Below, in pieces: positions 26,521 to 49,585 of a stretch of 64,000 bases of DNA. The stretch comes from Psammoneis japonica (Eukaryota). The stretch spans positions 310,001-374,000 of the forward strand of contig QPGO01000059.1 of the NCBI GenBank assembly GCA_008632985.1, in the 5' to 3' direction. A model generated the notes under the pieces. The model was not told the DNA's origin, searched no databases, and was given only the letters and a program-made list of their open reading frames with translations. Numbering within the stretch: the first letter of the stretch is position 1; every line of letters begins with the position of its first letter. The translations under genes and the position numbers were made by a program.

Positions 26521-28210
26521 TGATGTTGTGTGAACCTCAAGTGACCAGGAGGTGACAGCTGTTCAACCCGCCCAAAGCAGCCCACAGGTTGGGTTTCTTA
26601 ATTTGCCAAAATCAGGTGATTTTGCTGAATCTAACCAGCCATTCACCCCCACACTTGACAAGGACCAGCCAAATGTGCTGAGCACATTTTGAAGATTTTG
26701 GGGATCATTTTGCTCCAAATGCACAAAAATGCACCAACATGTGGAAATGTTCAAGGACTCACAGCATCATGCCGAGATGTTGCGGCATGCTCGCGATGAG
26801 CCAGCAACTACAATGGAGTCAATTGGATGGCTGCAACAACCACAAAACTCACTGACGTGTGCATTTGCAGCTGTTGGCTGCTCAAGGAAGTGGCAGCACT
26901 TGCCATTCAATCATTCAAACATGAGAGTTCTTTTCATCTGAGAGGAGAGAGAGAGCACACGCTCCAAAGAGACACTTGACATTTGAGCCAGCACTGCCAA
27001 GTGTGCAGCAAGCTTTTTCTTCAAGTTCTTTGAGACTTCAAAAAGTTTGTCCACCTCCTCCAAAGCTTTTGCTCAGTGAGATGTCTGTTCCAGCCAGCAT
27101 CTGCTTCCATCTCCTGCACTGCCATCTGCTCCACAGCTTCTTTCAGTGCCATGGCAAGACCTCCTCATCCATCTTTTGCTGAAGCACTGCCCAAGTCTCT
27201 GATGGTCCATTGTTCTCAACCTCTGACTCTCATCAGAAGTTGATGAATCACTCCTCAACCCTTTTGCAAGTCTCCTCTTGCTTTTGCAACAGCTGTCAGT
27301 GCTGCACCTGCACCCCTTGGCTGAGCAGTGGTGGCTTCTTTTTTGCTGGCGGCCGGGGGGGGGGGGGGGGGGGGGTCATCATTGGATGGTGGATGGTGCA
27401 ACCATGCCTCCTCCCTGTGCCTCTTCTTTGTCCTTGGCATGCTTGGCCCCTCTTTGCTCAATGACAGCAACAGCAGCATGAGGCCATGGGCAGTGGGCAA
27501 TGGATTTGTCAATTGTTGTAATTTGTTGACATTGGTGAAGAGCACGAAGTGCACATGCAGTGCAGCACTCCCCTCACATGGGAGGGAGACTGTGACATCA
27601 TCGATTGGCATTGCTTCTGTGCAGTCCACACACAGCCAGTTTCAGCATGCAAAGCCTGCTTCTGACTGCACTGCTGCCACTGGCTGGTGCTGGCACCAGT
27701 GGGGCCCTGACAATTGATGACAGAATGAAGCAGTGGGCCAATCACACACCATCCACCAGACCTGCCACATGATGTGCTGCTGCATGTGACCAACCCCTGA
27801 TGGTTGACAAGCACACACAGCAGGTTCCTGGTTCCTCTCTCTCTGGAGAGTCCACTCTGCTGCACTGGCAGAGCTCTGGAGTCTGCTCTGCTCTCTCCAG
27901 AGAGAGACTCCACAGTGATGGAGAGTTGAGAGTGGTGCGCGACCCCGACGAAACAGCAACAACAGCAGCGCCAACCCAAGGACAGCAACAGCACCATGAA
28001 AATGACCACTGTGCCTGTCTGATGAACATGCTGTGAGGGTCGCTGCCACAGAGTCTGAGAAGACAGAGATCCTGACATGGGCTCCTTTTTTGTGCCAGGA
28101 TGGTTTGTGTTTTGGGAGTGCAATGCAAATGCTGCCAGCCGACCCACTTCACAGCTTTCCATTGAACAATCACTCCTGTTGTCAATGTTTGGAGAAAGCC
28201 CAGTGAAAAG

Positions 28211-29432
28211 GTGATGAAGTTGAATCCTTGCCAAGAGACATTTGCAGGCATGTTTGAAAATGCCGCTGAACTTGCCAACTGTTCCTCTACGAGAATGGAA
28301 AGTGACAAGGGCACTGCAGCGAAAACCGCAATCTGGCCCATTGACATTTCCGTCAAAAATCAAATTGGTCAACCACACACAAGGAAAGAACATCAAATGG
28401 CCCATCTGCTCCCTGTGGGTGTGTCAAAGAGCACAAAGAGTGGCTTGGAGTGGTGGCAGCTGTGCTTGGGCTTCCAGAGTGCACCAGCATCAAGAACAAC
28501 TCAAAGCAACTGGGGGACACCTGAAACCACCTCTGGAAGTGAGGCACAAATTGGGAAAGGAAGGGAGGGTGGCAAAAAACCAAAAGCTTGTGCAAAAGGT
28601 TCAAAATCAGGGGAATCAGAAGAAGAAACACCAAGTTGTCAGGACTGCACTGGTGTGGTGCACTTTGTCTCCAATGAGGTGTGACTGAGTGGTGAAGAAA
28701 CACACTGGGATGGGTCAACTGCTTCTGTCATTCTTGTTCCGTGCATGGACTTGGTGGAGGCAAAAGACTGGGAAGGGTCAAGCACACAAAGCTCTTGTTC
28801 TGGCTGGGCTCCCTTGTGGTCAAGCACCACCAGATGCATGCCAAGTGTCTGACCCCAAAGATGTGATTGGACTGGCAAAGGACGCTCACAGGCACACAGG
28901 TTTTGGTGCAGAGGGATTCTGCAAGTGTTGTGTTCAAATGAAAGAACAAGGTCTTTTGCCAGGAGGCCAAGAGCATGCTCACCTTCTGTGAAAAGCACAA
29001 AATCTCCTCAAGACTGCTGTGTTGGCCCTGGCCCAGTGCATTGAGAGCTTCGCGATGGCTGACCTCACAAGCCTGCTGAAGGATGGTCAAGAGCTGCTGC
29101 TGAGGAAACGTGGCTTGGATTTGGCTGAAGAGGTGCTGGCACCCATGGAGTTGTGTTCAAGCAGAGACCATCATCTCAGGTCACTGCTCTTTGTTGACTT
29201 CAGGCCCCAACTTGGTGGGGAAGCCAGCCACCAAGCCCCAAATCCCTTGTTGTTGGCAGCCAAAGCGGGAAATGTCTTTGGAAGGATGACAGACTTTGAG
29301 TTTCTTGCCAGTGCTGCACTGAACCATGCAATGAAGACAAAGAAGACAGTTTGGGCTGCCTGGGTGAAGAACAGTGGTTGGCCACATGCCCATCACAGCC
29401 AGCCCCGCCACTCCCTGGAGTCATTTCTGTGA
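28211..29432 (+). pseudogene. Relic of an HNH-like nuclease-type gene
   Basis: Fragments in shifting frames: IWPIDI..AHLLP, TGVVHFVSN, HWDG..VILVP, HQAPNPLLLAAKA. Family assignment is from recalled motifs only. Confidence 0.3.
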
Positions 29433-31588
29433 CCTGACATGGGGACCGCTTGTCAGCTTGCATTGATGCTGCAGGGCTGACTTCACACTCCCCGCCTGGC
29501 GAACTTGTTTCGTGCTGTGACCTTGTTTGGGAGGACTTGATCACTCCTTTCCCACACCCAACAGTCGCAGCTTGTCATCTGGACATTGTGCAGGGGTTTG
29601 TGGTTGACCTCGTCAATCAAAACTCAGATGAGTCACTTGAGGGGCAATGTCACTTTGAGAGCAGACAACAATGCAGACCACTCAGCTTCAGTGGAGTCAG
29701 CTCAGGAATTGCACTCACCAAATCCTCTGGATCCCCTTGACAAAGTGTCCACAGTGTTCAGCATTGATGTGCTTCCAACCTGATGCACTTGCAATTGGCT
29801 CCATTCAAACCTCCCAAGCTTTTTGTTCAACAAGTGAGTTGGGCAGATGTGACAGTGTCCCTTTTGCAAAAAGACTGTTTTGATTTGCAAATTGCACCAT
29901 GCCTTTGCAGAAGATGGGTGATGGCGTTTCTGCAAAGTGTTTGTCAGGCCGCCTGGTGTGCAAAATGTAAACATCTTTCATTCAAAATGGCAAAAGCACA
30001 TTGGGGTCATCTTTGTGCTGTTTTTTGCCATGATGAAAGCTCTTTTTGCCACACTGCTGAAGAAAACACAGCCTGAGCTCAGGTCATGCACCTGCAGCAG
30101 ATTGACATGTGCGCGCACTTTGTGCTTGCATGCGCAAATTGCTGATGCAGAGAGGGCAAGAAATGGAAACTCCACTGGGGCCATCCTTCTCTTGTTTGAA
30201 ACAAGACCAACAACAGAGGCAAGGCAACCCTGAAAGAGAGGGGCGCTGAGTCTCATTGCCTCCCACTGTGCTGCATCTCTCCCTCGCTGCTGTCAGGGCT
30301 GCTGCAGTGTCAACCAGTGTTTTTCCTGGCACTCCCAACCTGTCCACCATTGCCAATGACAACCCCTCACATTTTGTGACCAGGGGAGGGATTCCCACAG
30401 TGCAGAGGAAGTGCAAAACAAGGCTGCCAAGTGTGCTCAAGCTTTGACCCAGGTGCCCATGATGCACCAACATTGCTCCAATGTCTCACCCAACATCCTT
30501 TGTGGTCAATTGTCTGTTGGCTGTTGAAATTGTTCTTGGGCACAAGACTCCTCATCTCATTCAGAGCAATTGTTGTGGGGGCTGTTGTGTTGATCTTTTT
30601 GTCGAAAACTCGGGCGGGGGTTGGTGTGCGCATGCTGGAGGAGGCTTTTTGGCAACATTGCTGCCCCTTTTGATCTTTTGCAATGTGTTGAGCTGACCAT
30701 TTTTTGTCTCATCTGGTTGTTTGCTGCCTTGCATTGTTGGCAAGGCATCCTCTGCAACACACTGCTGCTCCGCCCCTTCTTTCTTTGTGCCCAGCTGCGT
30801 TGTCTGGCAACGGACATTGCAGATCAGGGGAGGGTGCCAGCAAGCCAACTCTGCAGATGACAGTCAGACTTGGGTTGCTGAGTGGATGCCTCTGAGATCT
30901 TCTTTTTGCTCTCTCTCTCACTGATGCTCATGTTGTCAAAAACGCCCGTTTGCAGGAAACTCTTGACGCCATTGCTGGTGTGGCTCCCTGCTCTGATGCA
31001 TGGTGCAGCGACATCAGGTCAAATTGAGTGTCACATTTCTTTGATCACTTGTCCGGGTGGCAGTGCTTGGATCCTTTGTCCCAAATGGGGGCATGCATGT
31101 GGCATCGGTCAGTGCTGCTTCCTGCGGTGTGTGTGGGGGGGGTGACATCATGCTGGCTGGGGGCGCGAAGTCGAAATCACAACATGCACCCGGTACGTCA
31201 TGGTTCAGTAACAAAAGTCGCATGTAGAAAATGTATGATGTGTTACGTATGGTGTTTGGTTGCCATCCATCATCGCCACAATCGCGCTGTCGCGTTCGTT
31301 CGTTGCAGTGAAGCTCTCAACGACCTGCTGTACTCTCGCCGCAAGAGCTTCATATTCATTGACGTTGCGTAAAGGTCGGTGTTTTATATGTTTTTGTCAT
31401 GGTGTCGATGGTTTGGTGTTTCATCTTTTCGAAAAGCAGTTTTTTTGCGGCGACTCGATGCCATCTTCTGTTCGCTGTGACGCCGTCGTATGACAGACAG
31501 GCCTTGATCGTTTTGTTGTTACAGTTAGTAGTCGGCTCACTTTTTTCTTGCCGTTCCGGTATTGTAGTAGACACGCTCTATTGCAACC

Positions 31589-32077: not shown

Positions 32078-33209
32078 TTACACCCTCGGAATGAGCCTTT
32101 CAAAATGAGGCCTTGCATTCTTGATGTTCAAAAGCGTTGCAGCCGTATGCACGGTATCATTGTTGTTGGAAACAATCACCATAATGTACGTGTTGACGGT
32201 AAAGGCGTCAATAAAGGCTGAGAATTTGGAATTGCGAACCTCCATGCCTTGAAACTGCGACTGAGCCTTGCCGCAAGATAGCTTGAATTGCTTGACAATG
32301 TTGGATATCTTTTCAAACCGATGGGCATCAAAGTGCTGGAGCGAGGGCGGAGTTGCGTCAATCTCACCATGGTCGGGAGGAGGAGACGCCACCTCGTCGG
32401 GTGGCTGTTGGGAAGCAGATGTGACGGACGCAGCGGAAGGATTATCGTCAGTTGCAGCCACTGCATCATCAACTCCTGTTTCTGGAGATGAAGCGTCAAC
32501 CTCAATAGCAGCAGTACCATTTGGAACAGAAGATTCCGCGTCTGCTGCGGCTTGTTGCTGATGCGCATGTGAAATCACCAAAAAGGTGGCCCGCTCAAAA
32601 AGTACCACTTCATCGGCGTCACAGATCCGACAAAAGTTGTTCAAATGAGTCTCTAGCAGACCAATGTTGGGATAAGATTCGTTACAATCTCGGACCACGC
32701 CTTGTACAGAGTTTCATCCCAGATGCTCGTTCCAAAGCACGCAAAGTTCTGAACACCACAACCCTGACAGGATGCCGCAATCTGCTCTTTACGCTCTTGC
32801 AAAATCAACTCTCGGTCTTCTTGTGCAACTAGATCCATCTTGTGTACCAATACAAAGATTCGTGCATCCGGCGAGTTCTCTTCAATCGCCGTCAGGACTC
32901 CGTTAAAGTGATCAAAGTCCTTTTCGGGACAATCGGATTCAATGTCAAAGACATAAATCAGCAATTCGACACTCCGAAAAATCGTTTCTCGATCGCGATC
33001 AAAGTATGATTCGAAAAAAGCGTCCTGACCACCACAATCCCACAAGTTGAGCACCAAGTCACCCAAAAAGCGAACGTGGTGGTGTTCGACATCGAGTGTG
33101 GGAGAGAGGCGTGTCGTGTCGCGAGCCAAGTAATTTGCAAAAATGATGGACCGCATACTCGTCTTGCCTGAGTGGGCCTTACCCATAAGTAGCACCTTCT
33201 TCTTGCCAT
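32078..33209 (-). CDS. RRAGA: Rag GTPase RagA/B (Gtr1); two apparent 1-bp deletions (~33206, ~32670)
   Basis: [83 protein letters not shown]. Low-complexity insert in the C-terminal domain. Confidence 0.93.
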
Positions 33210-33377
33210 GGTCTTTATTAATACGTTGTGTTACGGACGAATAAAACAAAGATCACATTACAACAGCGCTGTTTTAGGTTGCTTTCACGTTGTTGTGTTG
33301 CAAAAAAAAGTACGAAGAAGAAGATCTTTCATGAGTCAGTCAGATGAGATTCCGAATTCCTTTTCCAAAGCAGTGAC

Positions 33378-33958: not shown

Positions 33959-34685
33959 ATGTTGGCGCAAAGGCTTTAGACAACGGAGCTTTCTTGGAAT
34001 GTGGAAAGCGATGTATACAATATATTTCAGAGATAGTCACAGTAGGAAGAATACGATGATGCCAGAGCTGAATTGCGTTGTCCTCTGAGTCTAGACTCAG
34101 CTGGATTCCCAGGAGAATGCCACGAAACAATAGATCTACTTCAATTTACACAGCCTTTCTGTACTACACTTTATCAGTAGAAACAAAATAATGTCTCACC
34201 AGAAAAGAAAATGGATCCGTGGAGCGGACTCAAAATAGTTGTAAAACTGGGTTGCATCCACACGCGCCCTTAATTTGCAATGACCTGTCACAGGTGATGC
34301 GCAATGCCGATCCTCCCAAACTGAAAGTCTAAATCTTTGTTTACCGCTGCCACATGTACTGTACATACACACTTTTCTGATGAACTAGAAGCTAGAGTGC
34401 ACAGTAGACAGAGGTGATTACTAACTGCATGCATCATAGTGTTTCCGACTCCGACTCACGCACCACACTTGTGGGTAGGAATGTAGAGTCTTTTCTACCT
34501 AATTTGTGTACCAGAAACAACGTAGAGACGCACCCCACAAAAAATGGCGCGAAGGCAAAATTTCTCGCACCTTCATCATGCGGACAACGCACGGAGGTTG
34601 TGTTTGGCATGCAGTTGATTGTATCGCTGTCTATCTCTCCATACATATACATCCAATAAGCTTATCGCTGTCTCCTTATAATAAC

Positions 34686-35483
34686 ATGTCTTCTTCAGCA
34701 ACGGCTCCTCCAACCACATCGGCAGCTACGACAAGCAGCACACAAGAAGATCTGAAACGTCATCAATGCAGCGGCTTTCTGGCTGGTGACGAAAACGTTG
34801 TTTTCGTCCCGAGCTTTACACACGAAAAACCCATGGAGCTTTTATGCCGCACCAGTATCGGTCCCTTTCGTGCCGGTCTCGACACGGTTGTTCCGCTGTG
34901 GTTGGCTGTCTTGCTGCGTCAGCGAAACATGGGCCGCATCGTGCCTCCGGTGTGGATGGATGTGACGGTACTGAAAGGCGTCCTGGCCCACGAACGGGAC
35001 GCCTCCAAGGCTTCCTTTTCGAGCGAATTGCCCTTTCGTTATCAAGAAGTGGCACGCAGTATTCTGGCGTTTGACGATTTGGACCATGCGGCGGAAATCC
35101 GTCTGTTGTTACAGGATATCATGACGGTGCGTATGGATAAAATCAAGCAGAATTTGCATACGCTTTCCCAACAATCGCTTTCGCAAGCAACAACCTTGCC
35201 CATTATTGATGTGACGCATATTGGGTCTCTCGAGTTGGCAGTGTATCGGCCCTTTATTACTCGGGCCTTTCGAAATCATTTGACACTGACGAGAAAGGAA
35301 ACCAAGTCGGGCAACAACAAGCTGTCGTCGAGTGAAAACGTCAGGTCTGCGGCACGCCGTGCTTCTAAAATCCAACAGCAAGAGGCAGACAGTGATGATG
35401 ATGATGATGCAGAAGAAAGCGATCTCGAAACGCCAAAGCCGCAGCAACCAGTCCAGTCTCGGATTCGTCGTCGCCTCCGATAG
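34686..35483 (+). CDS. PSF2: GINS complex subunit Psf2
   Basis: FLAGDENV.FVPSF, IGPFRAG..VPLWLAVLL, IVPPVWM, LPFRY.E, LLQDI..VRMDK, IGSLEL...RPF. Confidence 0.92.
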   Translation: MSSSATAPPTTSAATTSSTQEDLKRHQCSGFLAGDENVVFVPSFTHEKPMELLCRTSIGPFRAGLDTVVPLWLAVLLRQRNMGRIVPPVWMDVTVLKGVLAHERDASKASFSSELPFRYQEVARSILAFDDLDHAAEIRLLLQDIMTVRMDKIKQNLHTLSQQSLSQATTLPIIDVTHIGSLELAVYRPFITRAFRNHLTLTRKETKSGNNKLSSSENVRSAARRASKIQQQEADSDDDDDAEESDLETPKPQQPVQSRIRRRLR

Positions 35484-36588
35484 GTTTAAGCTCTAGCGAA
35501 CTAGAAGATGCTGTAAGTCTGGATAAAAGAGACATACACGCACTCTGGCGTATCTTTGAAATAGACGGAGTCTCGGGAAGATATTACATTTGCACTCTAG
35601 TGAATATTTGTCCTATAATTACTGCCTAGCACCCAGTAGATGTGAAATATGTGAATGAATAAACGTTCATCCATGCGGCATTAACTGTTACCGTACCACG
35701 ACGAAATTGGGCCTTCTCAAAGTGAATACAGTATTTACTACTTGCTCGTCATGTGAGACGACTGAATGAAATTTTCTATTTTCCTTTCGTAACATGTCTT
35801 TATCACAACGTGTTTTGCGGTTGGGACTGCCACAGCCGACATCCAAAAGCCTTTTTGTCGTTCTGATTGTTGCTTTTCTCGTTGACACGACAACATTGAT
35901 CTGCTTATTTTGTGTCACAGCTTGGGCATCTAATCCTCATTTCTTGCTGCTGTTCTTTCCTCTGTGAGTTGTGCCATCATTTTGAGAGGTGTGTCCCTCT
36001 CTTGCAACCATTGCCTGGGTTTGCTTGACACCAGTGCAAGCAGCCCAGCTCACTCTCCAAAGCACAGTTCTGCTCCGGCACTTGAATTCAAGTGCAATCA
36101 GGACCAGACCAGGACAGCAAAACCAAACATTTTGACAAAAAAATCAACATCTGGCTACAAGCATGAGCTCTTGCCACAAATTTGCGCAGTGCCGAGAAGG
36201 CAGCTGTTGGAGCCCGCATCAGCTCCAGAAATTCAATGTGTTTGTGTTGGGCCAGTCCAACATCAACTGGAGCAGCAGCATGGGGTCATCCCTTGACAAA
36301 GCTGCCATGCATCAACTCATGTGTGCTCAGCTGCATGGTCGAAAAACATTGTTGCATGCCAAGACAGCTGACGCGGGCATCACCACACCCCCACACAAAA
36401 GCCAAAAGGGCTGTTTTGCCAAGAGCTGCAATGTCAGGTTTTTTGTGCTGGCCATGGTCATCTGCCAAGCAACAGCTGGCATCTCAAATCTCAAAAACCT
36501 GGAAATGAGGGCGGCTGCTGTGGTCCCCTGCATGGAAGTTGTTGGGCACAAAAGAGACCCCCCCAATTTGGCTTTGTGGGGAGTTCCT

Positions 36589-36737
36589 CCCTTGATGATG
36601 TGGTGTGGCCCCATTTGTGGGCCAGCAGTTTGATGACCATCTTGCTGCCTCTCATGCCAGCACCCTTGATGATCTGGTGTGGCCCCATTTGTGGGCTGGC
36701 AGTTTGATGACCATCTTGCTGCCTCTCATGTCAGCAC
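36589..36737. repeat. 74-bp tandem duplication
   Basis: cccttgatgat...ctcatgYcagcac starting at 36589 and 36663. Confidence 0.9.
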
Positions 36738-37760
36738 TGTTGAGCAAGATGAGCCAAAGCAGTTGTTGTGAAATTCATGTGCAGCAAAAGTGAGCAGCAC
36801 AGCTCAGTCATCAAGGGTCATCAGGAAATTTTGGGGTGGGGCAACGCCTTTGATTGACAGCTGAGCACTCAGCAAGAGGAAAGTCAAAACATTTCTTTTT
36901 GCCATGTCCCAAACTTTGGCTCCTAAAAACATGAACAGCAAGAATGGGAAATGAGAGAGGGGACAAAGTGTGCTTTGTTTTGGAAAATCTTTCAACAACT
37001 GCTCAGGCTTTCCTTTGCCTCTGCAGCATGATGATGCTGCAGGAAGAAGAAGACAAGAGACAGTTGTGGTTGTGCACTGAACTCATTCTCAAGTTCCATG
37101 TGGTGTGACACAAAAGGGTGTTGGCAAGTGCAAAAGCCACTGACAGGCAATGCTGAACAATGAAAGAAAAGAAAGATGGCACAACAAGCCAAGCTCCTGG
37201 GGCTTGGTTGCAAGAGTGAATGATTGAACTCAAAATTGTGGTGGGCTCTCCTTTCCACCACTTGTCACCTCTGCCATCATTCTTTGTGCATGACACAGGC
37301 AGCTCATTGTCAGTGTGGAACAACAATCAACTTTCCACATGATTTCACCCATGCTGCATTTGTGACATGTGCCCATTTTCTTGCTCACAGAAAAAGAACA
37401 TCACAGAAGCATGACTCCTGATCATGAAGAGCGTTTCTCTGTTCTTCTTTTGGAGTGGACAAAGGCAAAAGAAGATCATGCGTGATCAATGATGTGCCAT
37501 GAGTTGTGGTGGTCATGATGTTTGGGTTAGGGCCCCAGAGCAATTTTCTGAGAGAGGGGGCTGGAGGCATCGTGGGACCGATCTCCAGCATGTGTTTTAC
37601 GTCGTGGTGTTTGCCGTTGAAGAAAGCTGTGAACTTGTCGCCGACCGCTGGACACTTTCAACTCTTTTGGCAGAGCCAAGAAGAAGACAGACACAAAAGA
37701 GTGGCATGAACAACAATCTGAAAGCCATTTAGCATGGATCCCTCACAGAGCAAAAAATCA

Positions 37761-38558
37761 TTAGCTCTGCTGACCTTCCTTTTCCTGATGGCGTCGACAG
37801 AGGTGTTTGTGTCTCTTCCAATCACCTTTTTGACACTCTCCACCACAACGCATTGCCACATGACATTCACTGCACCGCAGTTTTGCTGCAAGTTTCTTTC
37901 CACAGCAATCACACTCCAGATGCTCCTCCGCACCAGCCTGCAACCTCGAGAACAATTGGATGTCTTCGAGTCCCATGGCCTGATCCAACAGATTGGCATG
38001 GTTGCGGTCACAAAAGAGTTCCCATGCCAGCTTGCAAGCTGCAAAGAAAAACTTCTTCATCTGTGCCGGTCCATGCAGCAAAGCATGTTCCAATTCGGTT
38101 TTGGAAAGACGCTCCGCAAAGCAAAGCACATTCCATGTGCGCAAAACAATTTCACTCTTTGAAAGTTCCCTTTCTGCCCCATCGGACCGTCCGTCAAAGA
38201 CCAGTTCTTGTTTGTCCACTCCAAATGCATTTCCAAATTCTTCAATGACATCCTCTCCACCCATCATTTCGTCACATTCCTCTGGCAGCGGCCCATTGAC
38301 GTCTCCCGAACCATCACACAGGACTCCACAGTTGAGAAGGGAACGAAATTTTTCCACCACACTGGCAATGCCCGCCACACGAGGAGAGTGCCAATCATCT
38401 CCCAGTGGCATGGGCAGCGGAATGGGTTCGTAACCCGCCTCGCGCATCATTTTGTGGGGATTCACATGAAAGCCCACATCCCAATCAATGTTGGCAAAGT
38501 TGCTGTTGCAGAGTCGCGCCGTGTGCCCACTCCGTTGATGCGGTGGAAGACTGCGCAT
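37761..38558 (-). CDS. MYND zinc-finger protein; open frame but TpA-eroded (possibly pseudogenising)
   Basis: CDCC..LRCSECHVAMRCGGECQKGDWKRHKHLC. Only one Tyr in 265 aa, and the canonical YC reads RC (CGT). Confidence 0.6.
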   Translation of the reverse strand: MRSLPPHQRSGHTARLCNSNFANIDWDVGFHVNPHKMMREAGYEPIPLPMPLGDDWHSPRVAGIASVVEKFRSLLNCGVLCDGSGDVNGPLPEECDEMMGGEDVIEEFGNAFGVDKQELVFDGRSDGAERELSKSEIVLRTWNVLCFAERLSKTELEHALLHGPAQMKKFFFAACKLAWELFCDRNHANLLDQAMGLEDIQLFSRLQAGAEEHLECDCCGKKLAAKLRCSECHVAMRCGGECQKGDWKRHKHLCRRHQEKEGQQS

Positions 38559-38910
38559 GACGCGTTCCAGCCCTAGGTGGGACTCCGTGTGACATTGGGC
38601 CCGTAGAATTCTACGTGCGAGCTCCGTAGTACGAGAATTTAATTAATGGATACATTTATCTTCAACATCAAATAAACGGCCAAGTTTGTGGTACAATTAT
38701 GCCTCTTACCACTCGACGTTTTTGCAAATGCACCTGCCCTACGCGATTCTTAAGACATTATAGAATCGCGCTGTAACAATAAATGTCAAAAGTTTTTGGA
38801 CGGATCGCTCAATAAGTGTACCGTAAAATGACACAAAATATCGAAAAAATCACGTAGAAATCTACGTGCGCGACATACGACGTGATTCAAAAAACTGTCG
38901 ATGTCACAGT

Positions 38911-39213
38911 TCAGTAGTGCGAGGTCCCACCTAGACCTGGAACACGTCGCATCCACAACTGAATCGTATTTGCATAGTCGGTGGCGGCCAAGGCTTGTTC
39001 CATCTGTGTCCGACTGAAGCGGCTGTGCAAGTAGAGCGACTTGAAGGCGTTGTAGAGATTCCGGCCCGCGTCGCCAGACGTGCCCAAGACCTTTTCTGCA
39101 TCCGTGTCGGGGAGATAATCTGCATCGCGAGATTCAATATACTTTTGCACAATGAGTGCGTAGACCTTGTAGGCATATGGTACCAACTCAGAGGCGTTGT
39201 TGGTCGACGCCAT
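38911..39213 (-). CDS. Small 100-aa orphan protein
   Basis: ATG at 39213 (MASTNNASELVPYAYKVY...). GC-richer ORF between AT-rich flanks with normal Tyr content. Confidence 0.55.
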   Translation of the reverse strand: MASTNNASELVPYAYKVYALIVQKYIESRDADYLPDTDAEKVLGTSGDAGRNLYNAFKSLYLHSRFSRTQMEQALAATDYANTIQLWMRRVPGLGGTSHY

Positions 39214-39628
39214 GGTCTGTGTTGATCTTTGCAGATTGAAGATGCTTGATGGAATAGATTGGAGATGCGACGATGATGCATGCATTGTCCGTTGAAGAAA
39301 CTGAGCATTTTGAAATATATAAATTCTTATATATAATAAAAGATTATTATCCTCGTGTTAGAAAACAAATAATTTTATTAAACATTTAAGACACATATAG
39401 TTTCATAATTTTTTGGGCGATCAGCTTATTATGTTCGCCTTCATTTCTGTTGATGAATAGAATGATTTGGCGGCACGTGCCTCACATTTCATCGGCATTT
39501 CCTCATCAAATCTTCTCGGCGACTTCAACAACATTGATGTTATTGTGCATTATCTGTTGCCTTTGCAATCAATCAATCAGTAGTTCCATTCCGTACTTCA
39601 GTATTAGGCACTGCTATATGGTTCAAAG

Positions 39629-41513
39629 ATGAGCTCGACAATAAACATCGACGTTGTGCCTTCGCATGCGCCGTCTGATGAGAAACCGGAATCGATGTAT
39701 CATTCGCTTACAGAGTCTGGCGAAGCCCAGGGGATTGGTCTCACAAGCGGTTTAAATAACGACGATGACAGTGGAAACCCCCCTACCAAGATGGAAGTAT
39801 TTGAGCAGGAACAATACCAAGAACGAAATACGGGATCCATCTTTCATTCTTCGGACATACACTTGCGTTTTACAGACGCCCAATACAAGAATATCATTAA
39901 CGCACTGTACTTGTCCGTGGGCGCCATTTTTGGATCCTCTTTCGCATCATCGTGGCTCAGATTTTTGGTGAGAGCTGTAGGAATCCAGACACTATTGGTT
40001 GGTAAGAGTGAAAAAAGTTGTGTCGAACGTATATGCGCACTACAGGTAATGTGGCATGCACAACTCACTTTTTGTTTTTGCTCCTTCAGGCTAGCCGCGT
40101 CTTCGCCCTTGTGCGTCACTGCCGACGGAGAAGTTGGATCTGTCAATGGAATTGTCTTTGCGGTATGTAGACAGGTCCATTCGTTATGGGGTCTAATGTA
40201 TCACGACCCCACTTGACCTTTCTGATTTTATTCTCGTCTGTCTTGATCTTGCTTTTTGTCAATAGGATTTTCCTGCAAATATGCTTGGATGTTTCATTAT
40301 GGGCTTCATGGTATCGACAGATGTGCTTGGCTTACCTGTGAGCGCTCCCATTACCTGGTTGCCACCGGAACACTTTTTTCAAAGTTACGATGCTTTGCAT
40401 TTGGCAATTCGTACAGGATTCTGCGGCTCATTGACTACATTTTCGTCTTGGAACTCGGACATGGTTGTCATGATGTATGCGACCGGCGTTGCCAACACAA
40501 AGAGCATGGTAATTCGTGCAATGATTGGTTACATTGTCGGTATGGAAACAGCATTGGGCTCCTTTGCGTTTGGACGGACCATTGCCTTGTGGATCCATCG
40601 TTGGACGAATCCAATCTTGAGACAAGAAGAAGATGCAGTTTTTCGACGAAAAGCGGAAGGTGTTTACATTAATAACAAACTGCCAGAGTTTGAACGTCGA
40701 TTTCTTCCGGACCTTGATATGGATAGTACAGAAGACATTGATCCGAAACAGGTGGCATTTTTGGAGCGGTGGCGAGTGTCAACCAAGGAAGCTCGTAGAG
40801 TTGGTCATGTGCTGCTTCCTACGTTGATCGAGATTGAAGAGTGTGTCCTCATTCAACGAAAAAAGGCTACTCCTGCTTTGTATGCTGATGCCACACAAGC
40901 AGATTGGGACTTGGCGGCTCTTGAAGTTTGGGTAGAAGTTCGGGATGCCGACAATCCTGTCCATATTCAACCGCATATGCCAGATAGATACTATTCCTGG
41001 AAGGCCGCTCTATTGATATTTTCTCTCTGCATGGCTCCACTCCTGGTGGCCGTGTTTTTCCTAAATGGAGAGGACGATTATAGTGTAACATATCGCACCA
41101 TGGTGTTTGCCGCTCTGCTGGCGTCCCCGGGTGCCTTGTTGCGGTGGAAGTTGTCAAAGTTAAACGGGAAATTGCCGATTGCTTCGTTGAGTTGGCTGCC
41201 GATTGGAACACTGGCAGCAAACGTTGTGGGTTGTATGATTTCTATTTCGGCCATTGCTATCGAGCTCCGTCTTGACACCCATGCGTGGGAGTATGGAATC
41301 GAATACGGATTCGTTACCATTGGCTCCTTGCGAGCGATCAAAGTTGGGTTTGCTGGCAGTCTCACAACAGTGTCGACATTTGCCTCGGAGGTCGCAAACT
41401 TTATCAAGTGCTCCCTTACAGGATACAGGGCGTACATCTACACCACCATCACTATTGGCAGTTCGTGCGTCGTGTCTGTTCTTATTTATGGCCTGATTGT
41501 TTATGTTTTCTAG
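39629..41513 (+). CDS. FEX: Fluoride exporter FEX (tandem CrcB/Fluc domains); exons 39629-40001, 40090-40162, 40266-41513; 1-bp deletion near 39932
   Basis: GAIFG..R, ANMLGCFIMG, TGFCGSLTTFSSW, PGALLRW.L, GTLAANVVG, GFAGSLTTVSTF. Confidence 0.88.
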
Positions 41514-41783
41514 AGGAGGTACCGAACATTATCTGTGTGAACAAACTTACGCTTAGATTAAATTCGTAGATTTCATTCACTGAGAATGTAAGACTTAGGC
41601 AATCTTCTTCCAACTGGTAAAGCAACGACAGCGGCGAGAATCACTGCCATGCCAATCTAAAAGTGAACACAGGAATCCTTCACACTACGCGCAATGGCAA
41701 GCAATATCATAGTGATAATAATCTAAGTAGGTATGTCTAAGTCTCGTGTGAGAACAATCTAATTCCTAACTGTGTGTCAAATA

Positions 41784-43349
41784 TCAAGCGGACCCATTCT
41801 TGTTGTCACGAAGTTCTCGTTTAAGGATCTTGCCTGTGGCCGATTTGGGTAGAGCGTCAACAATCTCCACAACGCGAGGATATTTGTAGGCAGCAATGTT
41901 GGATTTGCAATACTCGATAATCTCTTGAGGTGCCAATTCTTTGTCTGGCTTGAGGACAATGACAGCCTTGACTTCTTCTCCAAGACGTTCGTCTGGAATA
42001 CCAATCACTGCCGCTTCCGCGATTGCTTCATGACGATAGAGCACTTCTTCCACCTCGCGACTGTACACATTGTATCCGCCGCGAATAATCAAGTCCTTTT
42101 TGCGGTCCACAATGAAATAATATCCATCCTCATCCACTGTGCCAATGTCACCCGTGGCGAACCATCCGTTTCCACGCGAAAAGACTTCTTCGTTGGCTTC
42201 AGGAGCCTCGTAGTAGCCCTTCATCACATTGACTCCGCGGATATGAATTTCACCACGTTCGTGGGGTTTGGTAATGACATTCCCATCATTATCCACAAGA
42301 CAGAATTCCACAAAATCAATCGGAACACCAATCGATCCTACCTTCTTGGGACGATCCAAGACGTTAAAGGACGCCACGGGCGGCGTTTCGGAGAGGCCAT
42401 ATCCCTCCAAGATGTTGACGTTGTACTTGGTATCAAACTCCTCCATGACGCTCTTGGGCATGGCACTTCCACCGCAGACACAATACTTGAGTGAATCAAT
42501 CTTGTATTCTTCCGCCTTGGGGTGATGAAGCAGTGCAAAGTACATGGTTGGGACACCCGCAAAAAAGTTAATCTCGTGCTGCTTTAAAAGTTTCAAGGCA
42601 CCCTCCGCGTCAAATCGTGGCATAAGAACAATGGTAGCACCGACACTCACACCACCATTCTGCACCACGGTTTGACAAAAGGAATGAAACAAGGGCAAGA
42701 CGGCCAAAAACTTGTGTTGCGACTTCAAGGGCAGAAGCGATCGAGTCAGGCATTGGGCGTTTTGAAACAAATTAAAATGGGATAATTCGGCACCCTTGGG
42801 TTTTCCGGTCGTGCCGGACGTGTAGAGAATGACAGCCGTATCGGTGGGCTGCGTGACGGCCATTTCTTGACGTGGCGCTGCCTTGCTTATCAAGGAGTTC
42901 CAATTGTACATACCATCACCCTCGTACTCCTTGACATTGGTGGGATCTTGCGGTACAACAATCAAATGTTGACACTTCTCCGCCCCCTGAAAACCAGCTT
43001 GAGCGTGTTCTAGAAAACCTTCCCATGCAATCAATACCTTGGCGTTGGAATTCTCCAAATGATACTGGACCTCACCCGATTTCAGCAACACATTGAGAGG
43101 CACTACGGAGGAACCACGGTATAGCGCACCAAAGTAGGCAGCTGTGAAATAAGGTACATTAGGCAACATGAGTGCAACATTGGCGGATGCTTCAGAATCA
43201 TCAAGTAGTGTATCCAGCACGGATGCAACCTTTTGCGACAAGCCTAGCAACTGACGGTACGTGACGGATGTTTCACCAATCACGAGTGCAGCCTTATCAG
43301 GGTACTTGGAGGCTGACGTTGTAAGCAGAGTAGAAAGGTTGAGAGACAT
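41784..43349 (-). CDS. Long-chain fatty acid-CoA ligase (FadD/LcfB-like), intronless
   Basis: YTSGTTGKPKG, EGYGLSET, GWFATGDIG, DRKKDLIIRGGYNVY..EVE, LPKSATGKILK. Confidence 0.93.
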   Translation of the reverse strand: MSLNLSTLLTTSASKYPDKAALVIGETSVTYRQLLGLSQKVASVLDTLLDDSEASANVALMLPNVPYFTAAYFGALYRGSSVVPLNVLLKSGEVQYHLENSNAKVLIAWEGFLEHAQAGFQGAEKCQHLIVVPQDPTNVKEYEGDGMYNWNSLISKAAPRQEMAVTQPTDTAVILYTSGTTGKPKGAELSHFNLFQNAQCLTRSLLPLKSQHKFLAVLPLFHSFCQTVVQNGGVSVGATIVLMPRFDAEGALKLLKQHEINFFAGVPTMYFALLHHPKAEEYKIDSLKYCVCGGSAMPKSVMEEFDTKYNVNILEGYGLSETPPVASFNVLDRPKKVGSIGVPIDFVEFCLVDNDGNVITKPHERGEIHIRGVNVMKGYYEAPEANEEVFSRGNGWFATGDIGTVDEDGYYFIVDRKKDLIIRGGYNVYSREVEEVLYRHEAIAEAAVIGIPDERLGEEVKAVIVLKPDKELAPQEIIEYCKSNIAAYKYPRVVEIVDALPKSATGKILKRELRDNKNGSA

Positions 43350-43649
43350 GGCGTTTTGGCGTTCTTGTAGCTTTATGGGTAACAATCATTCGCTAGAGTA
43401 GAGAGAAGGATATCGCAGCAACAGGAACAGCAACGAGAACAGCAGAAGTGAACCCGGTAACTGTAAGGCGAACTAGTAGACCCTATTGTGCGTGATTGAA
43501 GTTTGTGTTGAAGGAAGGTGTCACCTCAAAGATCGCGCCACATCGCGCCAAAAAGTCTCAACGTCAATGACCCAAATCTTGGTTTTTATGACATACAACG
43601 CTACTGTACGTAGGGCCCTACCTAGAGAGCAGGGCCCTGTTTATTTTAG

Positions 43650-46600
43650 AACGACCATGCCATGGATGAACACAACCCCAGTGGCATTTCTTGCCGACCG
43701 TCAACACAAATTGGAGCCAAGACGGCAGGCCAAGCACAATGAGAGGACATCTCTTGGGTGGCCGTGCTCTTGGAGTGTCGCCGCGCGACAGACAGCAGCC
43801 TGCGCAGGTGCAATGGATGGACAGATGACGGACGATGACGAGATGCCGCCCAGTCCCCCTCATTGTTCTTGGCAGACGATCAGTGACAATGGGATCAGAT
43901 GCGTTGACCCACTTGGGTCAACAATGCTGAAAATTCCCACCCAACCCATCCCTCTGTTCACACATCAGCGCAGGGGAACAAATGGACGGAATTAGATCTA
44001 CGGATTTGTCCCCTGTTTTCCCAGCCACTGTCACAGCAGCAACACATGAATGCACATGTTTGTGTGTGTGTCACACATTGGGTGCATTTGTCCATGGTTG
44101 TTGCTCCCATTTGGTGGTGTCACTGTGTTGTCATGTCATCGAAGTGCAGTCCAGCTGAGGCTGCAGTGGCAGGGAATCTCCGATTCATGACGACATCAGC
44201 CGCTGCGATCATCAAGATTCTGGAGAAGAGTCTCAACAATCTTGGAATTGCAGAGACCTCCAAGAAGATTTGGTGCCCCAAGCTCCCATTGGCACACATC
44301 AAACCTGTCATTTGTTGCAAGGTGTTCAATGGCATGGAGCTCATTTTTGCTGAACATGGCAAGTCATTGCACAAAATGACACTTCCCCTTCCCACCCATG
44401 ATGATGTTGTCACGTGGGCCCCATCAAAACGTCAAAATGAATTCAACAAAAACATCAAGTGGGCAGCATGCCCTGAGTTGGAATGACCCAATGTTGCACC
44501 TGTCATGCATGAATTTTGTGGCTGTTTCTGTGTGGTGTGGGATTGAGGAAAAGTGTCCGAGGGTTTTTGTGCCACATTGACACAGGTTCCATCCAGCCAG
44601 TGTGCTGCAAACCTCCCAATGCGGTCCGCATGTGAGTGGGCCATGATGAACCAACTGACAAGTCACCCAGACAACAACAGACTGACCAAGCCCAACTTGG
44701 ACAGCCCACGGGGTGCGCTTGTTGTGCTGGTGGCCAAACCCAATCAAGAGGACAACCCATGGTTCCAGCACATCTGGCACTCATGCATCTCATGTCAGAA
44801 ACTGAGCCAGGCAATGCATCCTTTTGCACGCATGCCCCCCTTGGTGCAACGATGCAGCACAAGACATTCCCCCACATGCCAAGTCTTTGTCAGCTTTGAT
44901 TTGGAGATTGTGGGTGCTGGCAAATTCATCATGACAAGGAAACCTGCTGCCACAAGACTGACTGTGGATTGCAACATGCTGGCACACTGCAACACATCTG
45001 CCAAAGCATGCATGAGGGGAGCAACTGAACACTGGAAGCTCCCCCACAACTGTGTTGATGGCCATCCCACAGCACCATGGCCCCCTCAATGAACAAACCT
45101 CCCCACTTTGGCACAACCCACACCACCCCTCACCTTCAGTGGTGCACTCACTTTAAACCATGCATCCAACCTTGCCCAAGAAGCCAATTGAGCCCAAAGA
45201 ATCATCGCACGGGGCCCCATCACACAGCCCTCATCCTCAAGCCTCTTGACAACATCAAAATCATTGCAAACAACCCTGTCTTTCTGGATGATCATGTGCA
45301 GAAAAATCAGCAGGACCATGCATTGGTGACCAATGCCAAGTTGTTCTTTGAAGATGGGTCACATCATTCACCCCAAGACAACCATGTTGATTGGCACATC
45401 ATGGTGTGCACACCAGAAAACCCAAAACCACCACTGTCTGACAAACAAGAAGAAGAGTTCCAGACATGGTGTTCGACAGCCCTGCTGGAACACACCAATC
45501 TTCTCATTGGGTGCGGTCATGCAAGAGCAGCCTTGTTGTTGTTTCCTCATTTTCATGGCAACCCAACCAAGTTCATCAAGCACAATGCCAAGCTGCGTGT
45601 CGATTGGTCAGCTGCAGCTGCCATGGTGAGCAACACCACTCATGGTGGTTCCATCAAGAGAGACCACATCCTGGTGCTTGTAGCCCCTGCAAGCATGGCC
45701 AAACAGCTCTGCTTTCCCCCCTCCTCAAAAACCCCAGATCCCATGCACAAGCATCTGGGCACACACTTGTCATCAAGCATCTTCCTTGATCTTGATGATG
45801 CAACCAAAACTGACCTGATGCCAGTTGCCAAAGCCATGGCAGAGAACATGACACATCAGCAACTGTCACCTGGTTTGCCAAGCCAAGTGCAATGAGCTCC
45901 CTCTGTGAGGGCTTTTCCAGCATTCTCTGACACCAACCCAGCTCCGTCGATTGCCGCACCCTGAGTCAAAGGAGATTTCTTCAATGGCCCATTTGCCACA
46001 TGGGGATGTCTTGCAACAACTGCCAGCATCACCACCCAGCCCATCTGTGTGAGATCATGAACCCGCTCGGTGTTGACCAGAGTCATGCCAAATGCTTGGT
46101 TCACCATGATGAGAGCACCCCACTCAAGTCATTGCACAAGCAGCACCAGGCAAAGCTGGATTGTGCATGATGCTCCATGCTTTGCACATGGCCGAATCCT
46201 TGTGCAAACCAGACAGTCAAAACATGAGGAGTTGGCCAACAAAGCCAACATCCAGCCAACTGCAGCACACATGTCTTTGGCCCCGGCAATCAACAGAGCA
46301 ACTGTGGTGCCATTTCCTGATGATGGCAAGTGGTGACAAGCAACGACACAAGATCATGACCACAAAGCAGTCCTGTCACACCTCCAACATGGCACAGCTC
46401 CCACTGGAGCCAACTTCAGCAACAAAGGTTGTGCTCGGGCATTCAAAGCTGACCAGTTAGAAGCAGATCAGGGCATCACATGCTTCTGTGAATGAATCAA
46501 GTTGAACAATCACTGCCAACTCTGAGCCAAAGTGGTGCCTGTCACATTGCGCTGAACGGTGATTGTGGCATGCCATGTGCCCCCATTTGCAGGACAAAGT

Positions 46601-48340
46601 GGCATCATCTGCATTTTGTTCCAGGTGCAAACAAGGTTCTGGTGGCTGGGCATGCTGCAAGACATCACAGAAGGCATCCATGGATGTGGACATTGCACTC
46701 TGGCCAACTGCACCTTGCATGAGGCTCAAATGCAGTTGACTGCATTGAGTGGTGATGTCCCATTTGATGTCATTTATCTTGATGTCTAGATGCCTGGTGA
46801 CATCCAAGATGTCCAAGGTCCAAAGAAAGTCCTCACATTTGTTGACTGCATGACTGGATTTGTCATGGCATCTTTCTTGGGAATTGCTTTTGACTCTTTG
46901 GTTGTTGCTGATGTCACAGTCTCACAGTTCTTTGTCTTTTGTGGACTGCCTGGACAGATTGCAGCAGGTGCTGGTTCAGTTTTCTGTGCTGTGTTTTTGT
47001 GGCTTTTTGATCTCCAAGTCCCCATCACAGCCATGTCCAGAACAAACCACAGAGCAGTGCACAATGAGAACTTCCACCATTGTCTGAATGAGGTTGAGAG
47101 CAGATTGATGCCGCAGACACCGGATCAATGATGCAATGGAAACTCAGCATCATCTTTGCTGCACATCCCTGGAGTGCTTCTCCCATTGATGCCACTGTCA
47201 TCCCATGAGCTGTTGCAGTGACAGGCAGAGAGTTCCCCTTCCCAATCAACCTGGTGCTGAACATGCCACATGACAGCAGCTCTGATGCCAAGAACAAATT
47301 GGCAGATCATTGCAAGGCTGCAACCCCACTGCCACTCAACAACATGAAATGCTCAACACACTGAACAATGAGAGGTGACAATGACACATGGAGCTGTGCA
47401 ACCACTCTGCTGCACAGTGCCAATTCTGCCCAGGGGATCTGGTCATCACAAGAAAAATGGTGCAATCTGATGCTTCATGTGGAATTGCAACCAAAGTGCT
47501 CTTCAAGGCCAAAGGTCCACATTGTGTGCTCAAGCAAATCTCTCCGGTGTCCTGTCGAGTGAAATGCATGCCGTTTCTCTGTGGACAAGGCCAGCCTGGC
47601 AAACCCTGGAAAGAGAATGCTGGGTGCATGACCCTGTCACCATCTCTGCTGATTTTTCACAAGCACGCAGACAGAGTGGACACACAGCTCCTTTGGCTGT
47701 TGAGTGACATCAAGCAATCACCACCACCGCACAAGTGGCTGGGAGTTTTGCAATGTGGTGGCTTCACCCAAGCTGCACCAGATGCCACTGGGGCATTTGA
47801 GCTGCTCCAAAGCATGTGGAGTGAAGACATGCCAGACCCTGACTCTGATTCCAACTCCAATTCAGACCCCAAAGATGACCCTCAATTGGCAGACAATCCC
47901 AGAGATGATGATGAAATCCAAGAAATCCCTGAGACTCCCCATGCTGAAACACCTTCCACCATGATCCTTCCAGGTGTTGATCTGTCTGCTGACCAACTCC
48001 TCAACAAACTCTGCTGGTCCATTGAGGATTCCACTGACAAGCCATTCTTCACAGCATGTCAACAATCAGAGGAGGACGAAAGTCCTGTGACAAAAATCAC
48101 TCAAGCGGACCTCCTGGAGACTGTCCCACATCAGGCAAAATGGCGTGGGATGCACCACATCAGATGGTGGTCTCAACACTTTCAAGACCAGGATGACAGA
48201 TCTGCAGTTGACAATTGACTCTGGCCAGATGCACACAGGAAATGAGCAGACAGCCATCAGCCACTCCAACTTGTTCCAGTGTGCCCGCAAAAGATTCAAG
48301 ATGTGCTGGCAACTGACTCCACTTTGGAGTGGAAGCACGA
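43650..48340. other. Block C: CpG/TpA-depleted DNA
   Basis: Visible dinucleotide bias; left edge 43651-43990 has 18 CG and 0 TA by hand count. Confidence 0.88.
44480..47900 (+). mobile_element. Degenerate Ty3/Gypsy LTR-retrotransposon pol (reverse transcriptase then integrase)
   Basis: RT remnants SPRGALVVLVAKP..WHSCISCQKL, SFDL..GCWQI. Integrase remnants PFDVIYLDV, VDCMTGF, GLPGQI, NENFHHCLN, GREFPFPI. Order RT>INT. Confidence 0.8.
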
Positions 48341-48478
48341 TTGTATTTACAAGATGATGTCCTTTTGGGAAGTGAAATCCAGTGTGGTCATTATCATGAT
48401 GATTGTCATTGTTGTCACCGTCAGCATCACTCATTCTGCAATCTATAATCTATAATGTTAACCTACACCACTGCGTCA

Positions 48479-49585
48479 CTAACATGACTCATCAATAGTG
48501 AGATGCAAGTCGCCAGGTTTTGCTTTCTTTGCAGACTCAGCTGCTCCGGTAGCCTTATCTAGAAGTAGCAAGCTTTTCTGAGACTGTAGAAGTCCCGCAA
48601 CTCGAGAAGCAATCCTCTGTACTCCCCCCTTCAAGTCATTTTCGTCGTCAATAATGAACGTGCGTAGTCGAATGGCACCAGCATCTTTCTTGCGCGTTGC
48701 TGATGGCTCCAATCGTAGAAGAATCCATTCCCTGTATGTTGTCGCTATTCCGTAGAATGGCAAGTCAACGCAAAATGAGCGTTTCTGACCACGCCCCTCA
48801 CCTGCCGCTGTTAGTTGCGCAAGATTCTGATATAAGCCTTGGGCGACGTTGTCCTTTTTGCCTTCCGTGATGCAGATTCTGTGGTTCCCGTAATGTGCCA
48901 TCCAGTCAACAGGTCCTTTCCCAAGACTGCCGTCGACTTGTTCTTCACATGCCAGTTTGACTTCTGCAATTGAAGCAGCAAGGACTAGGACTGAAGAAAT
49001 GAATTCTCGTCGCGTGTATTCACAGCCTTGTTCCAATGGATCATATAGTTTGTGCTTCAGGTTTAGATCTTTGACAGCATGGAGCAACAGATCATGGGTA
49101 TCTGGAATGCTAGCAGGTTGTGGGAATCGAGGATCGTCATTACGGACTATCTGGATCTCAGAAATACCGGCATAATCGAGCGCATCTTCTTCAGTGAATT
49201 CCGAGAACCCAATGTGTTTGGTTTTTATATAGAGCGTTCGTGGGTATTTCGCGTTCCGCAAGTAGTCGTCAGACACAACGTGGCGGCACTTGTCGTCCGA
49301 ATAGATGAAAAAATCAGCTTCTTTGAGATGCCCCTGCCACTTGGAAACAGCATGCTCGCTCAGGCAGGTGACGGTCACTGCGTTCCTGGCAATGTCGGGG
49401 ATCGTCACAGAACCATACTTGCTGTACTTGAGTGTTATCGTTACGAAATCGAAAGGGATTGTATTTCTAATAGCTGCATTCAACGTCTCGCATTCTTGGG
49501 CGCTCAAACTCACCAGTGAAGCCGCCGACGCCGAATTCTCCAGTTTGTTCTTCAAAGCCGAAAGGGGTGATAAGCCGCCGTTCAT
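48479..49585 (-). CDS. PD-(D/E)XK restriction-endonuclease-fold protein (Crinkler-type nuclease domain), intact
   Basis: EEQVDG..GKGPVDW..ICITEGKK..QGLYQNLAQL..YGIATT..W; normal CG and TA content. Confidence 0.75.
   Translation of the reverse strand: MNGGLSPLSALKNKLENSASAASLVSLSAQECETLNAAIRNTIPFDFVTITLKYSKYGSVTIPDIARNAVTVTCLSEHAVSKWQGHLKEADFFIYSDDKCRHVVSDDYLRNAKYPRTLYIKTKHIGFSEFTEEDALDYAGISEIQIVRNDDPRFPQPASIPDTHDLLLHAVKDLNLKHKLYDPLEQGCEYTRREFISSVLVLAASIAEVKLACEEQVDGSLGKGPVDWMAHYGNHRICITEGKKDNVAQGLYQNLAQLTAAGEGRGQKRSFCVDLPFYGIATTYREWILLRLEPSATRKKDAGAIRLRTFIIDDENDLKGGVQRIASRVAGLLQSQKSLLLLDKATGAAESAKKAKPGDLHLTIDESC

Follow-up and report, generated by a model that had tools for sequence, protein, structure and literature searches.

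TpA-specific hypermutation of DNA has been found reported once in the literature on this theme, in a 2026 preprint on the alga Bigelowiella natans. In mutation-accumulation lines of this species, two integrated viral regions acquired about 6e-7 mutations per site per generation, a hypermutation of roughly 1000-fold over the background rate, and 230 of the 231 mutations changed A/T to G/C, all of these 230 falling on TpA (Mettrop et al., bioRxiv 10.64898/2026.01.13.699255). According to the Results and Discussion of the same preprint, the B. natans genome holds 124 clusters that are depleted in TpA and enriched in CpA+TpG, its low-TpA gene set has a mean TpA frequency of 0.0018, and an ADAT2-like DNA adenine deaminase is proposed as the agent (10.64898/2026.01.13.699255). 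Here we describe four islands of comparable composition in a 64,000-nucleotide stretch of Psammoneis japonica (positions 310,001 to 374,000 of contig QPGO01000059.1, assembly GCA_008632985.1; hereafter the window), one of which has taken in half of a gene for a MYND-finger protein. TpA (TA) has nearly vanished from these islands, CpG (CG) is strongly depleted in their cores, and the two losses differ in reach at some edges and in their dependence on flanking bases, a combination that suggests the same signature as in B. natans in a different, intron-poor eukaryote.

The four TA-poor islands (20149-31193, 35932-38573, 43648-48343 and 49806-55695) occupy about 23 kb of the 64 kb, and their base composition is nearly equal to that of the rest of the window. 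Observed-to-expected ratios (o/e) in the islands are 0.03 for TA, 0.21 for CG and 1.82 for CA/TG, whereas those of the remaining sequence are 0.58, 1.02 and 1.19, respectively. Per kilobase, TA falls from 40.4 in the background to 2.05 in the island cores and CG from 57.1 to 10.7, and CA+TG rises from 147.9 to 228.8; since this gain of 80.9 per kb compares with a combined loss of 84.8 per kb, transitions of TA and CG to TG/CA explain 95% of the loss. The depletion of CpG in the cores is thus accompanied by a matching excess of TpG/CpA, and the mass balance requires the losses of TA and CG both. Other steps between A and T are spared, with o/e of AA, AT and TT remaining at 0.87-1.21 in the islands (AT 0.87). 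CA and TG increase about equally and long strand-biased runs are absent; strand-coordinated (kataegis-like) conversion was considered and rejected, the CA/TG skew in 500-bp bins having a standard deviation of z of 1.44 in the islands and 1.47 in the background. The islands are discrete units, with support intervals of 46-174 bp for the TA change-points.

The same islands and their junctions are reproduced by contigs built from a public sequencing run (X1) at the depth of the flanks (about 60; likeness threshold at least 80). These contigs span 34685-36654 (1 difference), 36973-38582 (2 differences), 38921-43770 and 43746-49591 (4 differences), with 0-4 differences each. Differences of the type CG to TG/CA, in either direction, make up 7 of 11 in the islands and 3 of 16 in the flanks, numbers too small to be read further. 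A cluster of differences at 30113-30133 stands at 2-3 times the flank depth, with a second copy as a possible source, and in the bin 43341-44007 the depth reaches 287, which points to moderate repetition of the sequence there.

The likeness to B. natans extends from the loss of TpA and the gain of CpA+TpG in kilobase-scale clusters to the TpA frequency itself, which is 0.0018 in the low-TpA class there and 0.00205 in the cores here, and, as far as the Results and Discussion of the preprint go, to the many unannotated genes, the transposon-type domains among the affected sequences and the zinc fingers, one Pfam family of which is enriched there, with a MYND finger matched here. The two cases differ in that the purge was measured in lines there and is deduced from sequence here, and in gene structure, B. 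natans being described in PMC12730881 as having 7.8 introns per gene and 159-bp exons, against long single-frame genes in the window.

Among better-known processes, repeat-induced point mutation (RIP) of fungi is similar in producing regional, saturating, dinucleotide-specific transitions in unwanted DNA that can leak into neighbouring unique genes, features that are also named in 10.64898/2026.01.13.699255. RIP changes C to T at CpA and enriches TpA; the direction in the window is opposite, with TpA abolished to the o/e given above while AT is kept and CpA/TpG enriched. Duplication, which triggers RIP, does not mark the affected DNA either: the islands are single-copy, and a tandem duplicate of 599 bp at 86% identity (15625-16218 and 16416-17012) is untouched, with normal TA and CG and 28 TA per copy. 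Repeats between or within islands were not found, apart from one 74-bp tandem duplication in island 2 (36589-36743, plus strand, 92.6% identity), in which one of three internal differences is a CA/TG double difference; such a difference would be expected from one ancestral TA or CG resolved separately in the two copies, though this is a single case. The decay of CpG in methylated DNA resembles the cores in the CpG o/e of 0.21 and in the TG/CA excess, which are confined to islands against a background CpG o/e of 1.02. Nevertheless, deamination of 5-methylcytosine leaves the TA loss unexplained, and the CpG loss has a smaller extent than the TA-free domain at two to three edges. The logic of hypermutation as a defence is shared with the ADAT2/TadA, ADAR and AID/APOBEC enzymes, and ADAR targets A after T/U (as cited in 10.64898/2026.01.13.699255); these enzymes differ in acting mostly on RNA or single-stranded DNA. 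An ADAR-type footprint would combine U/A as the favoured 5' neighbour with G as the favoured 3' neighbour in double-stranded RNA. A 5' T is required absolutely in the islands, where the strand of each event is not distinguishable, and there is no sign of a 3' G preference, with CTAC/GTAG at 1.57 times and CTAA/TTAG at 3.5 times the expectation among surviving sites. No deaminase or methyltransferase genes were found among the window frames scanned.

The two losses separate at some of the island edges. The original prediction, which held that the TA-free zone extends beyond the CG-free core at block edges, was based on hand counts of 21 CG and 0 TA at 37801-38400 and of 18 CG and 0 TA at 43651-43990, and recounting gave exactly the same numbers. 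The complete TA-free gaps around these two edges are 37762-38431 (669 bp, 25 CG) and 43647-43993 (346 bp, 18 CG), and from 37762 to 38574 there is a single TA, at 38431. At the background rate, the Poisson probability of finding no TA is 3e-11 for 600 bp and 1e-6 for 340 bp; none of 3675 background sliding windows of 600 bp (minimum 9 TA) and none of 3805 of 340 bp (minimum 4 TA) is without TA. At both edges CG is much more frequent than the core rate predicts (P = 4e-6 for the first and 6e-8 for the second); measured against the background rate, it is at the same level at the second edge (P = 0.43) and slightly lower at the first (P = 0.01). Both flagged edges are real, yet they are not the rule among the eight.

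Change-points of TA and CG were fitted separately by maximum likelihood at all eight island edges inside the 64-kb window. For island 1, an 11-kb block that is TA-free, CG-poor and TG/CA-rich, they fall at 20149 and 31194 for TA and at 20224 and 31106 for CG; for island 2, of which the right-hand 1 kb retains CG, at 35932 and 38574 for TA and at 35889 and 37571 for CG; for the TA-free island 3, at 43648 and 48344 for TA and at 44002 and 48596 for CG; and for island 4, where CG is partly kept toward the right end, at 49806 and 55696 for TA and at 49722 and 54894 for CG, the last with wide support. The TA-free zone thus passes the CG-poor core by 1003 bp at edge 38574 and by 354 bp at edge 43648, in both cases with support intervals that do not overlap, and by about 802 bp at edge 55696, where the CG support interval is wide. 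In the first of these edge zones (37571-38573), 5 TA are present where 40.5 would be expected; its 44 CG compare with expectations of 10.7 from the core rate and 57.3 from the background rate, and its 191 CA+TG with an expectation of 148.5. The second (43648-44001) has 2 TA against 14.3 expected and 19 CG against 3.8 (core rate) and 20.2 (background rate), so that TA is lost with CG at background, and the probable third (54894-55695), with CG mostly kept, has 2 TA against 32.4 expected and 32 CG against 8.6 (core rate) and 45.9 (background rate). Over the edges, CG o/e is 0.63, a mild reduction.

The bases that flank surviving sites provide a second line of separation. Relative to background density, TA survival in the cores is 0.4% at RTAY (R, purine; Y, pyrimidine), 4.3% at mixed and 15.7% at YTAR sites, a range of about 40-fold (chi2 43.8, p = 3e-10), whereas CG survival in the same flank classes is 21%, 18% and 17% and shows no dependence (p = 0.45). 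Residual TA in the islands amounts to 51 sites, almost all of them YTAR or mixed (TTAA, CTAA/TTAG, GTAA/TTAC, CTAC/GTAG), with TTAA about 5-fold and CTAA/TTAG about 4-fold over-represented and none in ATAC/GTAT, ATAG/CTAT, GTAC or ATAT; the table for cores only differs by one ATAC. Ten of the residual sites fall together in 26022-26809, a patch that may have escaped conversion or been inserted later. A model in which TA and CG share one dose fits only if TA is converted much faster than CG is lost, and we read the differing flank rules as two processes. Since the TA purge can be told apart from CpG loss by its extent in space as well as by its flank rule, it would not ride on cytosine methylation.

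Conversion in place is indicated by the MYND-finger gene, which lies across the first edge. Its 3' half (37761-38558, minus strand; zf-MYND, E = 7e-07) is inside the TA-free edge, and its 5' half (38949-39285, minus strand) is outside island 2, with the N-termini of homologues aligning by tblastn at 38938-39213 (59.6% identity to the homologue P0003) and with TA and CG at background density. The 5' half encodes 8 Tyr and 0 Cys in 115 residues, against 1 Tyr in 266 residues for the 3' half, which is rich in Cys and His. In an alignment with six homologues of 35-50% identity, where a conserved Tyr column was defined by Tyr in at least three of the six, all eight conserved Tyr columns of the 3' half are altered, to TGY in four, CAY in three and CGT in one, and one of these lost codons is inside the MYND zinc finger. 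Conserved Arg columns of the same half are still CGN in five cases, with one CGG changed to TGG. The CGT (Arg) stands in the conserved MYND-finger Tyr column at 37850 (minus-strand codon) and would be expected if both adenines of one TpA were converted (TA to CG); if so, the purge can itself create CpG.

The two halves are split by an intact transposon-like element of 390 bp that resembles a miniature inverted-repeat transposable element (38559-38948), with 25-nt terminal inverted repeats that are 88% complementary, a 5-bp direct repeat on both flanks and about 30 TA kept. Per bin, the summed X1 contig depth is 51,000-96,000 over the element and about 60 in its flanks, and a depth of about 1000 times the flanks implies that the element family is very abundant. 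At three positions of this copy (38658, 38699 and 38915), TA stands where TG or CA prevails in the contig depth. A metagenome scan with the terminal-repeat pattern returned 120 loci, each a lone match due to chance in unrelated contigs that were mostly rich in GC, and none was similar to the element or to the window. The element has GT after an upstream CAG and AG in its far terminal repeat, and excision there would leave an open frame with nine additional codons, so that it might be spliced as an intron. The border of the TA-free domain (38559-38574) meets the end of this intact, TA-rich copy within one gene; the chance of a transposon end within 50 bp of any of the eight borders is roughly p ~0.03, and this one case suggests that the domain is delimited, or was in part defined, by the insertion. 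At the boundary 43648, a transposon-like end was considered and not counted, the resemblance being of 11 bases only.

Islands 3 and 4 contain further recognisable sequences. In island 4, a pseudogene of a lineage-specific gene (53925-55210, plus strand; relative P0009, tblastn E = 2e-48) has a single frameshift, near 54090-54100, as well as two TGA codons in frame, and the nine Tyr of P0009 that can be aligned with it stand opposite H in five cases, C in two, F in one and T in one. A homopolymer run of the kind T8 G15 was also noted in this pseudogene at 54386-54412. Beside it, at 55235-55275 (plus strand), lies a relic terminus of the same family as the element in the MYND gene, with two mismatches to the terminal repeat, one of which is a TA site: CTGGG stands where both intact ends have CTAGG. 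Island 3 holds a remnant of a retroelement-type integrase zinc-binding domain (46535-46708, plus strand; PF17921 Integrase_H2C2, E = 6e-09, 36.3 bits against a cut-off of 25.5) in a frame that had to be read through stops. As judged from these alignments, the TA loss is one that occurred in place, the direction of change being taken from homologues and not from observation of new mutations.

Taken together, these results make it probable, though well short of certain, that TpA-specific hypermutation and a separate, slower decay of CpG have acted here in domains of unequal reach. The islands would be silenced or foreign-type DNA, made up of the remains of a retroelement, of lineage-specific pseudogenes and of the downstream half of the resident MYND gene. 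In this DNA, TpA would have been hypermutated in place to TpG or CpA by A-to-G changes on either strand. This conversion would have gone nearly to completion across a sharply bounded domain, best at RTAY and worst at YTAR. A second and slower process, most likely the deamination of methylated cytosine, would have turned CpG into TpG/CpA with indifference to flanks, and may have been limited to the island cores or have acted longer there; with a TpA domain wider than the CpG-decaying core, an edge without TA and with normal CG would result. The chemistry could be the deamination of adenine in DNA that has been put forward for B. natans, and the targeting could follow a chromatin or transcript domain that in one case ends at a transposon insertion. 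If the preprint's rate of 6e-7 per site is combined with its TpA share of 3.3% of dinucleotides, which makes about 6.6% of bases targets, the half-life of a TpA in an active region would be of the order of 4e4 generations, an estimate good to order of magnitude. This is far below any plausible time for CpG decay, and TA-free margins with intact CG therefore fit a part of the domain that was recently extended or is unmethylated.

Several points weigh against this reading. The TA and CG boundaries lie within 43-88 bp of each other at four of the eight edges, and the offset is present at only two to three of the eight, two of them clear and one probable. At edge 48344 the order is reversed, with a CG-poor stretch 252 bp past the TA-free zone, situated between island 3 and the next long frame, the end of which is near 48480. 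The P0009 comparison uses one homologue at 33-35% identity. Signs of foreign origin are one integrase remnant, with no Pfam match in island 1 and no relatives in viral contigs. X1 shares its sample with two other runs, may itself be the data from which the window was assembled, and is therefore not fully independent. The enzyme, the methylation of cytosine in the cores, the timing and any present-day activity are things that we infer, and one deaminase with two activities and differing exposure times could give the same nesting. With regard to the original prediction, the TA-free zone exceeds the CG core at edges 38574 and 43648 and does so neither where boundaries coincide nor where they are reversed; its further claim, that TA is not lost simply as a consequence of CpG decaying at those sites, is supported by edge geometry, the altered codons, the flank rules and the B. 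natans precedent without describing a general pattern. The edges would fit either of the two options that it named, a TA erosion faster than CpG decay or one reaching past methylation. Its term "erosion" names a genuine loss and is too mild for one that resembles saturating, enzyme-like conversion rather than slow decay.

The alternative that survives best, and which we regard as unlikely, is a single deaminase that converts A in TpA quickly and C in CpG slowly over the same domain, the edges being younger or having had less exposure. Each of the two changes is an amino-to-keto deamination that gives TG/CA, the zones are nested, CG is mildly reduced in the edges, where one conserved CGG has become TGG, and ADAT2 enzymes that act on both A and C in DNA are cited in the preprint (10.64898/2026.01.13.699255). 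An older core would also fit the island-4 pseudogene, the core part of which has the frameshift and the two stops and the edge part of which is open; however, stops arise from CGA to TGA and never from TA conversion, so that open frames in an edge say little about its age. The flank dependence, about 40-fold between RTAY and YTAR for TA and nil for CG, argues against one enzyme without being decisive, and so does the hypermutable DNA of B. natans, where 230 A/T-to-G/C mutations stand against 1 other (10.64898/2026.01.13.699255).

It is far less probable that the islands are foreign DNA which arrived already poor in TA and CG and simply kept its composition. The integrase remnant in island 3, the single-copy state of the islands and the lack of a Pfam family for most of their frames are what such an origin would leave, and the preprint ties regions of this kind to viral and transposon DNA (10.64898/2026.01.13.699255). 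Nevertheless, the MYND gene is normal on one side of the transposon and nearly Tyr-free on the other while remaining collinear with its homologues, the terminus in island 4 belongs to a resident transposon family and has its TA converted, and the CA+TG gain matches the conversion of background-like DNA. We know of no genome with a TA o/e near 0.03. For 38 phycodnavirus genomes, the Results and Discussion of the preprint give an average Rho_TpA of 0.75 (10.64898/2026.01.13.699255). In island 1, no Pfam match was obtained with six frames read through stops, and no internal repeats were found; among viral contigs, neither the MYND family nor P0009 was found to have a relative, a weak negative with a method that favours close relatives.

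An artefact, in which modified bases at TA and CG were misread in sequencing or polishing, is slightly more remote still. Near-total conversion confined to two palindromic dinucleotides has the look of a systematic base-calling error, and single-base insertions in X1 relative to the window at 32666 and 33204 suggest different data types and a probable error-prone long-read source for the assembly. However, the word-based X1 contigs run through the junctions at even depth and are TA-free in the same way as the window, misreads would be expected to differ by read strand and not to yield a clean TG or CA per site, and the flank-dependent survival and the intact frames fit biology. Per the X1 contigs, a missing T at 32666 splits the RagA gene (32078-33249, minus strand), which is an assembly error of the window.

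Selection against TA is the least credible explanation of all, for although some transposon families insert at TA, TA-targeting nucleases and UA-cutting RNases could likewise select against it with the CG loss incidental, and sharply edged domains could be functional units, the loss has destroyed conserved Tyr codons, one of them within a zinc finger, extends to non-coding DNA and to pseudogenes with stops and a frameshift, and would require selection at about 900 separate sites in dead DNA, which is implausible. A dinoflagellate link via 5-hydroxymethyluracil at TA was also considered and is unsupported, with no spliced-leader relic in the window and mixed statements on TA preference in the parts of the literature at hand.

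Beyond the reading of two processes that we prefer, a bolder possibility, to which we give less than even credence, is a domain-guided defence that edits adenine in DNA on the duplex palindrome TpA, prefers RTAY, clears an entire chromatin or transcript domain in a time that is short in evolutionary terms and independently of cytosine methylation, spreads from foreign DNA into host genes up to a boundary such as a transposon, and exists in at least two eukaryotic lineages. If this were true, it would represent an old and overlooked arm of genome defence. What appears new relative to the B. natans report is the CpG nesting, the flank rule, the spread into a host gene and the border marked by a transposon: the word "CpG" has 0 occurrences in the main text of the preprint (10.64898/2026.01.13.699255), and its Results and Discussion do not mention co-located CpG loss, nesting, an RTAY-over-YTAR rule or spread into resident genes. 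Conversion at RTAY well above YTAR could serve as a testable fingerprint of the enzyme, the consumption of half of a resident gene would mean that the defence costs the host, and a border at a transposon insertion offers a handle on how the domain is set. Other genomes could be screened simply for TA-free, CA/TG-rich islands, with or without CpG loss.

Outside the islands, the window carries eukaryotic genes, among them GINS Psf2, an IBR protein, MYND fingers, a double CrcB/FEX, RagA and a peroxidase, mostly as long uninterrupted frames that are intron-poor, together with a U4 spliceosomal RNA gene at 7911-8041 (plus strand; 53.5 bits, gathering score 46). A bacterial reading of the window was rejected in view of GINS, IBR, MYND, double CrcB and the U4 RNA. 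A gene with DEP and pyridine-nucleotide oxidoreductase domains (2006-4443, plus strand) is spread over three frames with gaps of about 26 bp, which could be very short introns or indel errors. Tandem repeats of 130 bp with 78-85% identity occupy 18341-18885 inside a 651-aa frame (17595-19550). Between islands 2 and 3, a 533-aa acyl-CoA ligase (41784-43385, minus strand) has its best named matches, at 57-59% identity, among long-chain fatty acid-CoA ligases from Myxococcota/Deltaproteobacteria assemblies, only three unnamed records being closer (62-65%) among database proteins that include those of NCBI and JGI, and may be a gene of bacterial origin in a eukaryote.

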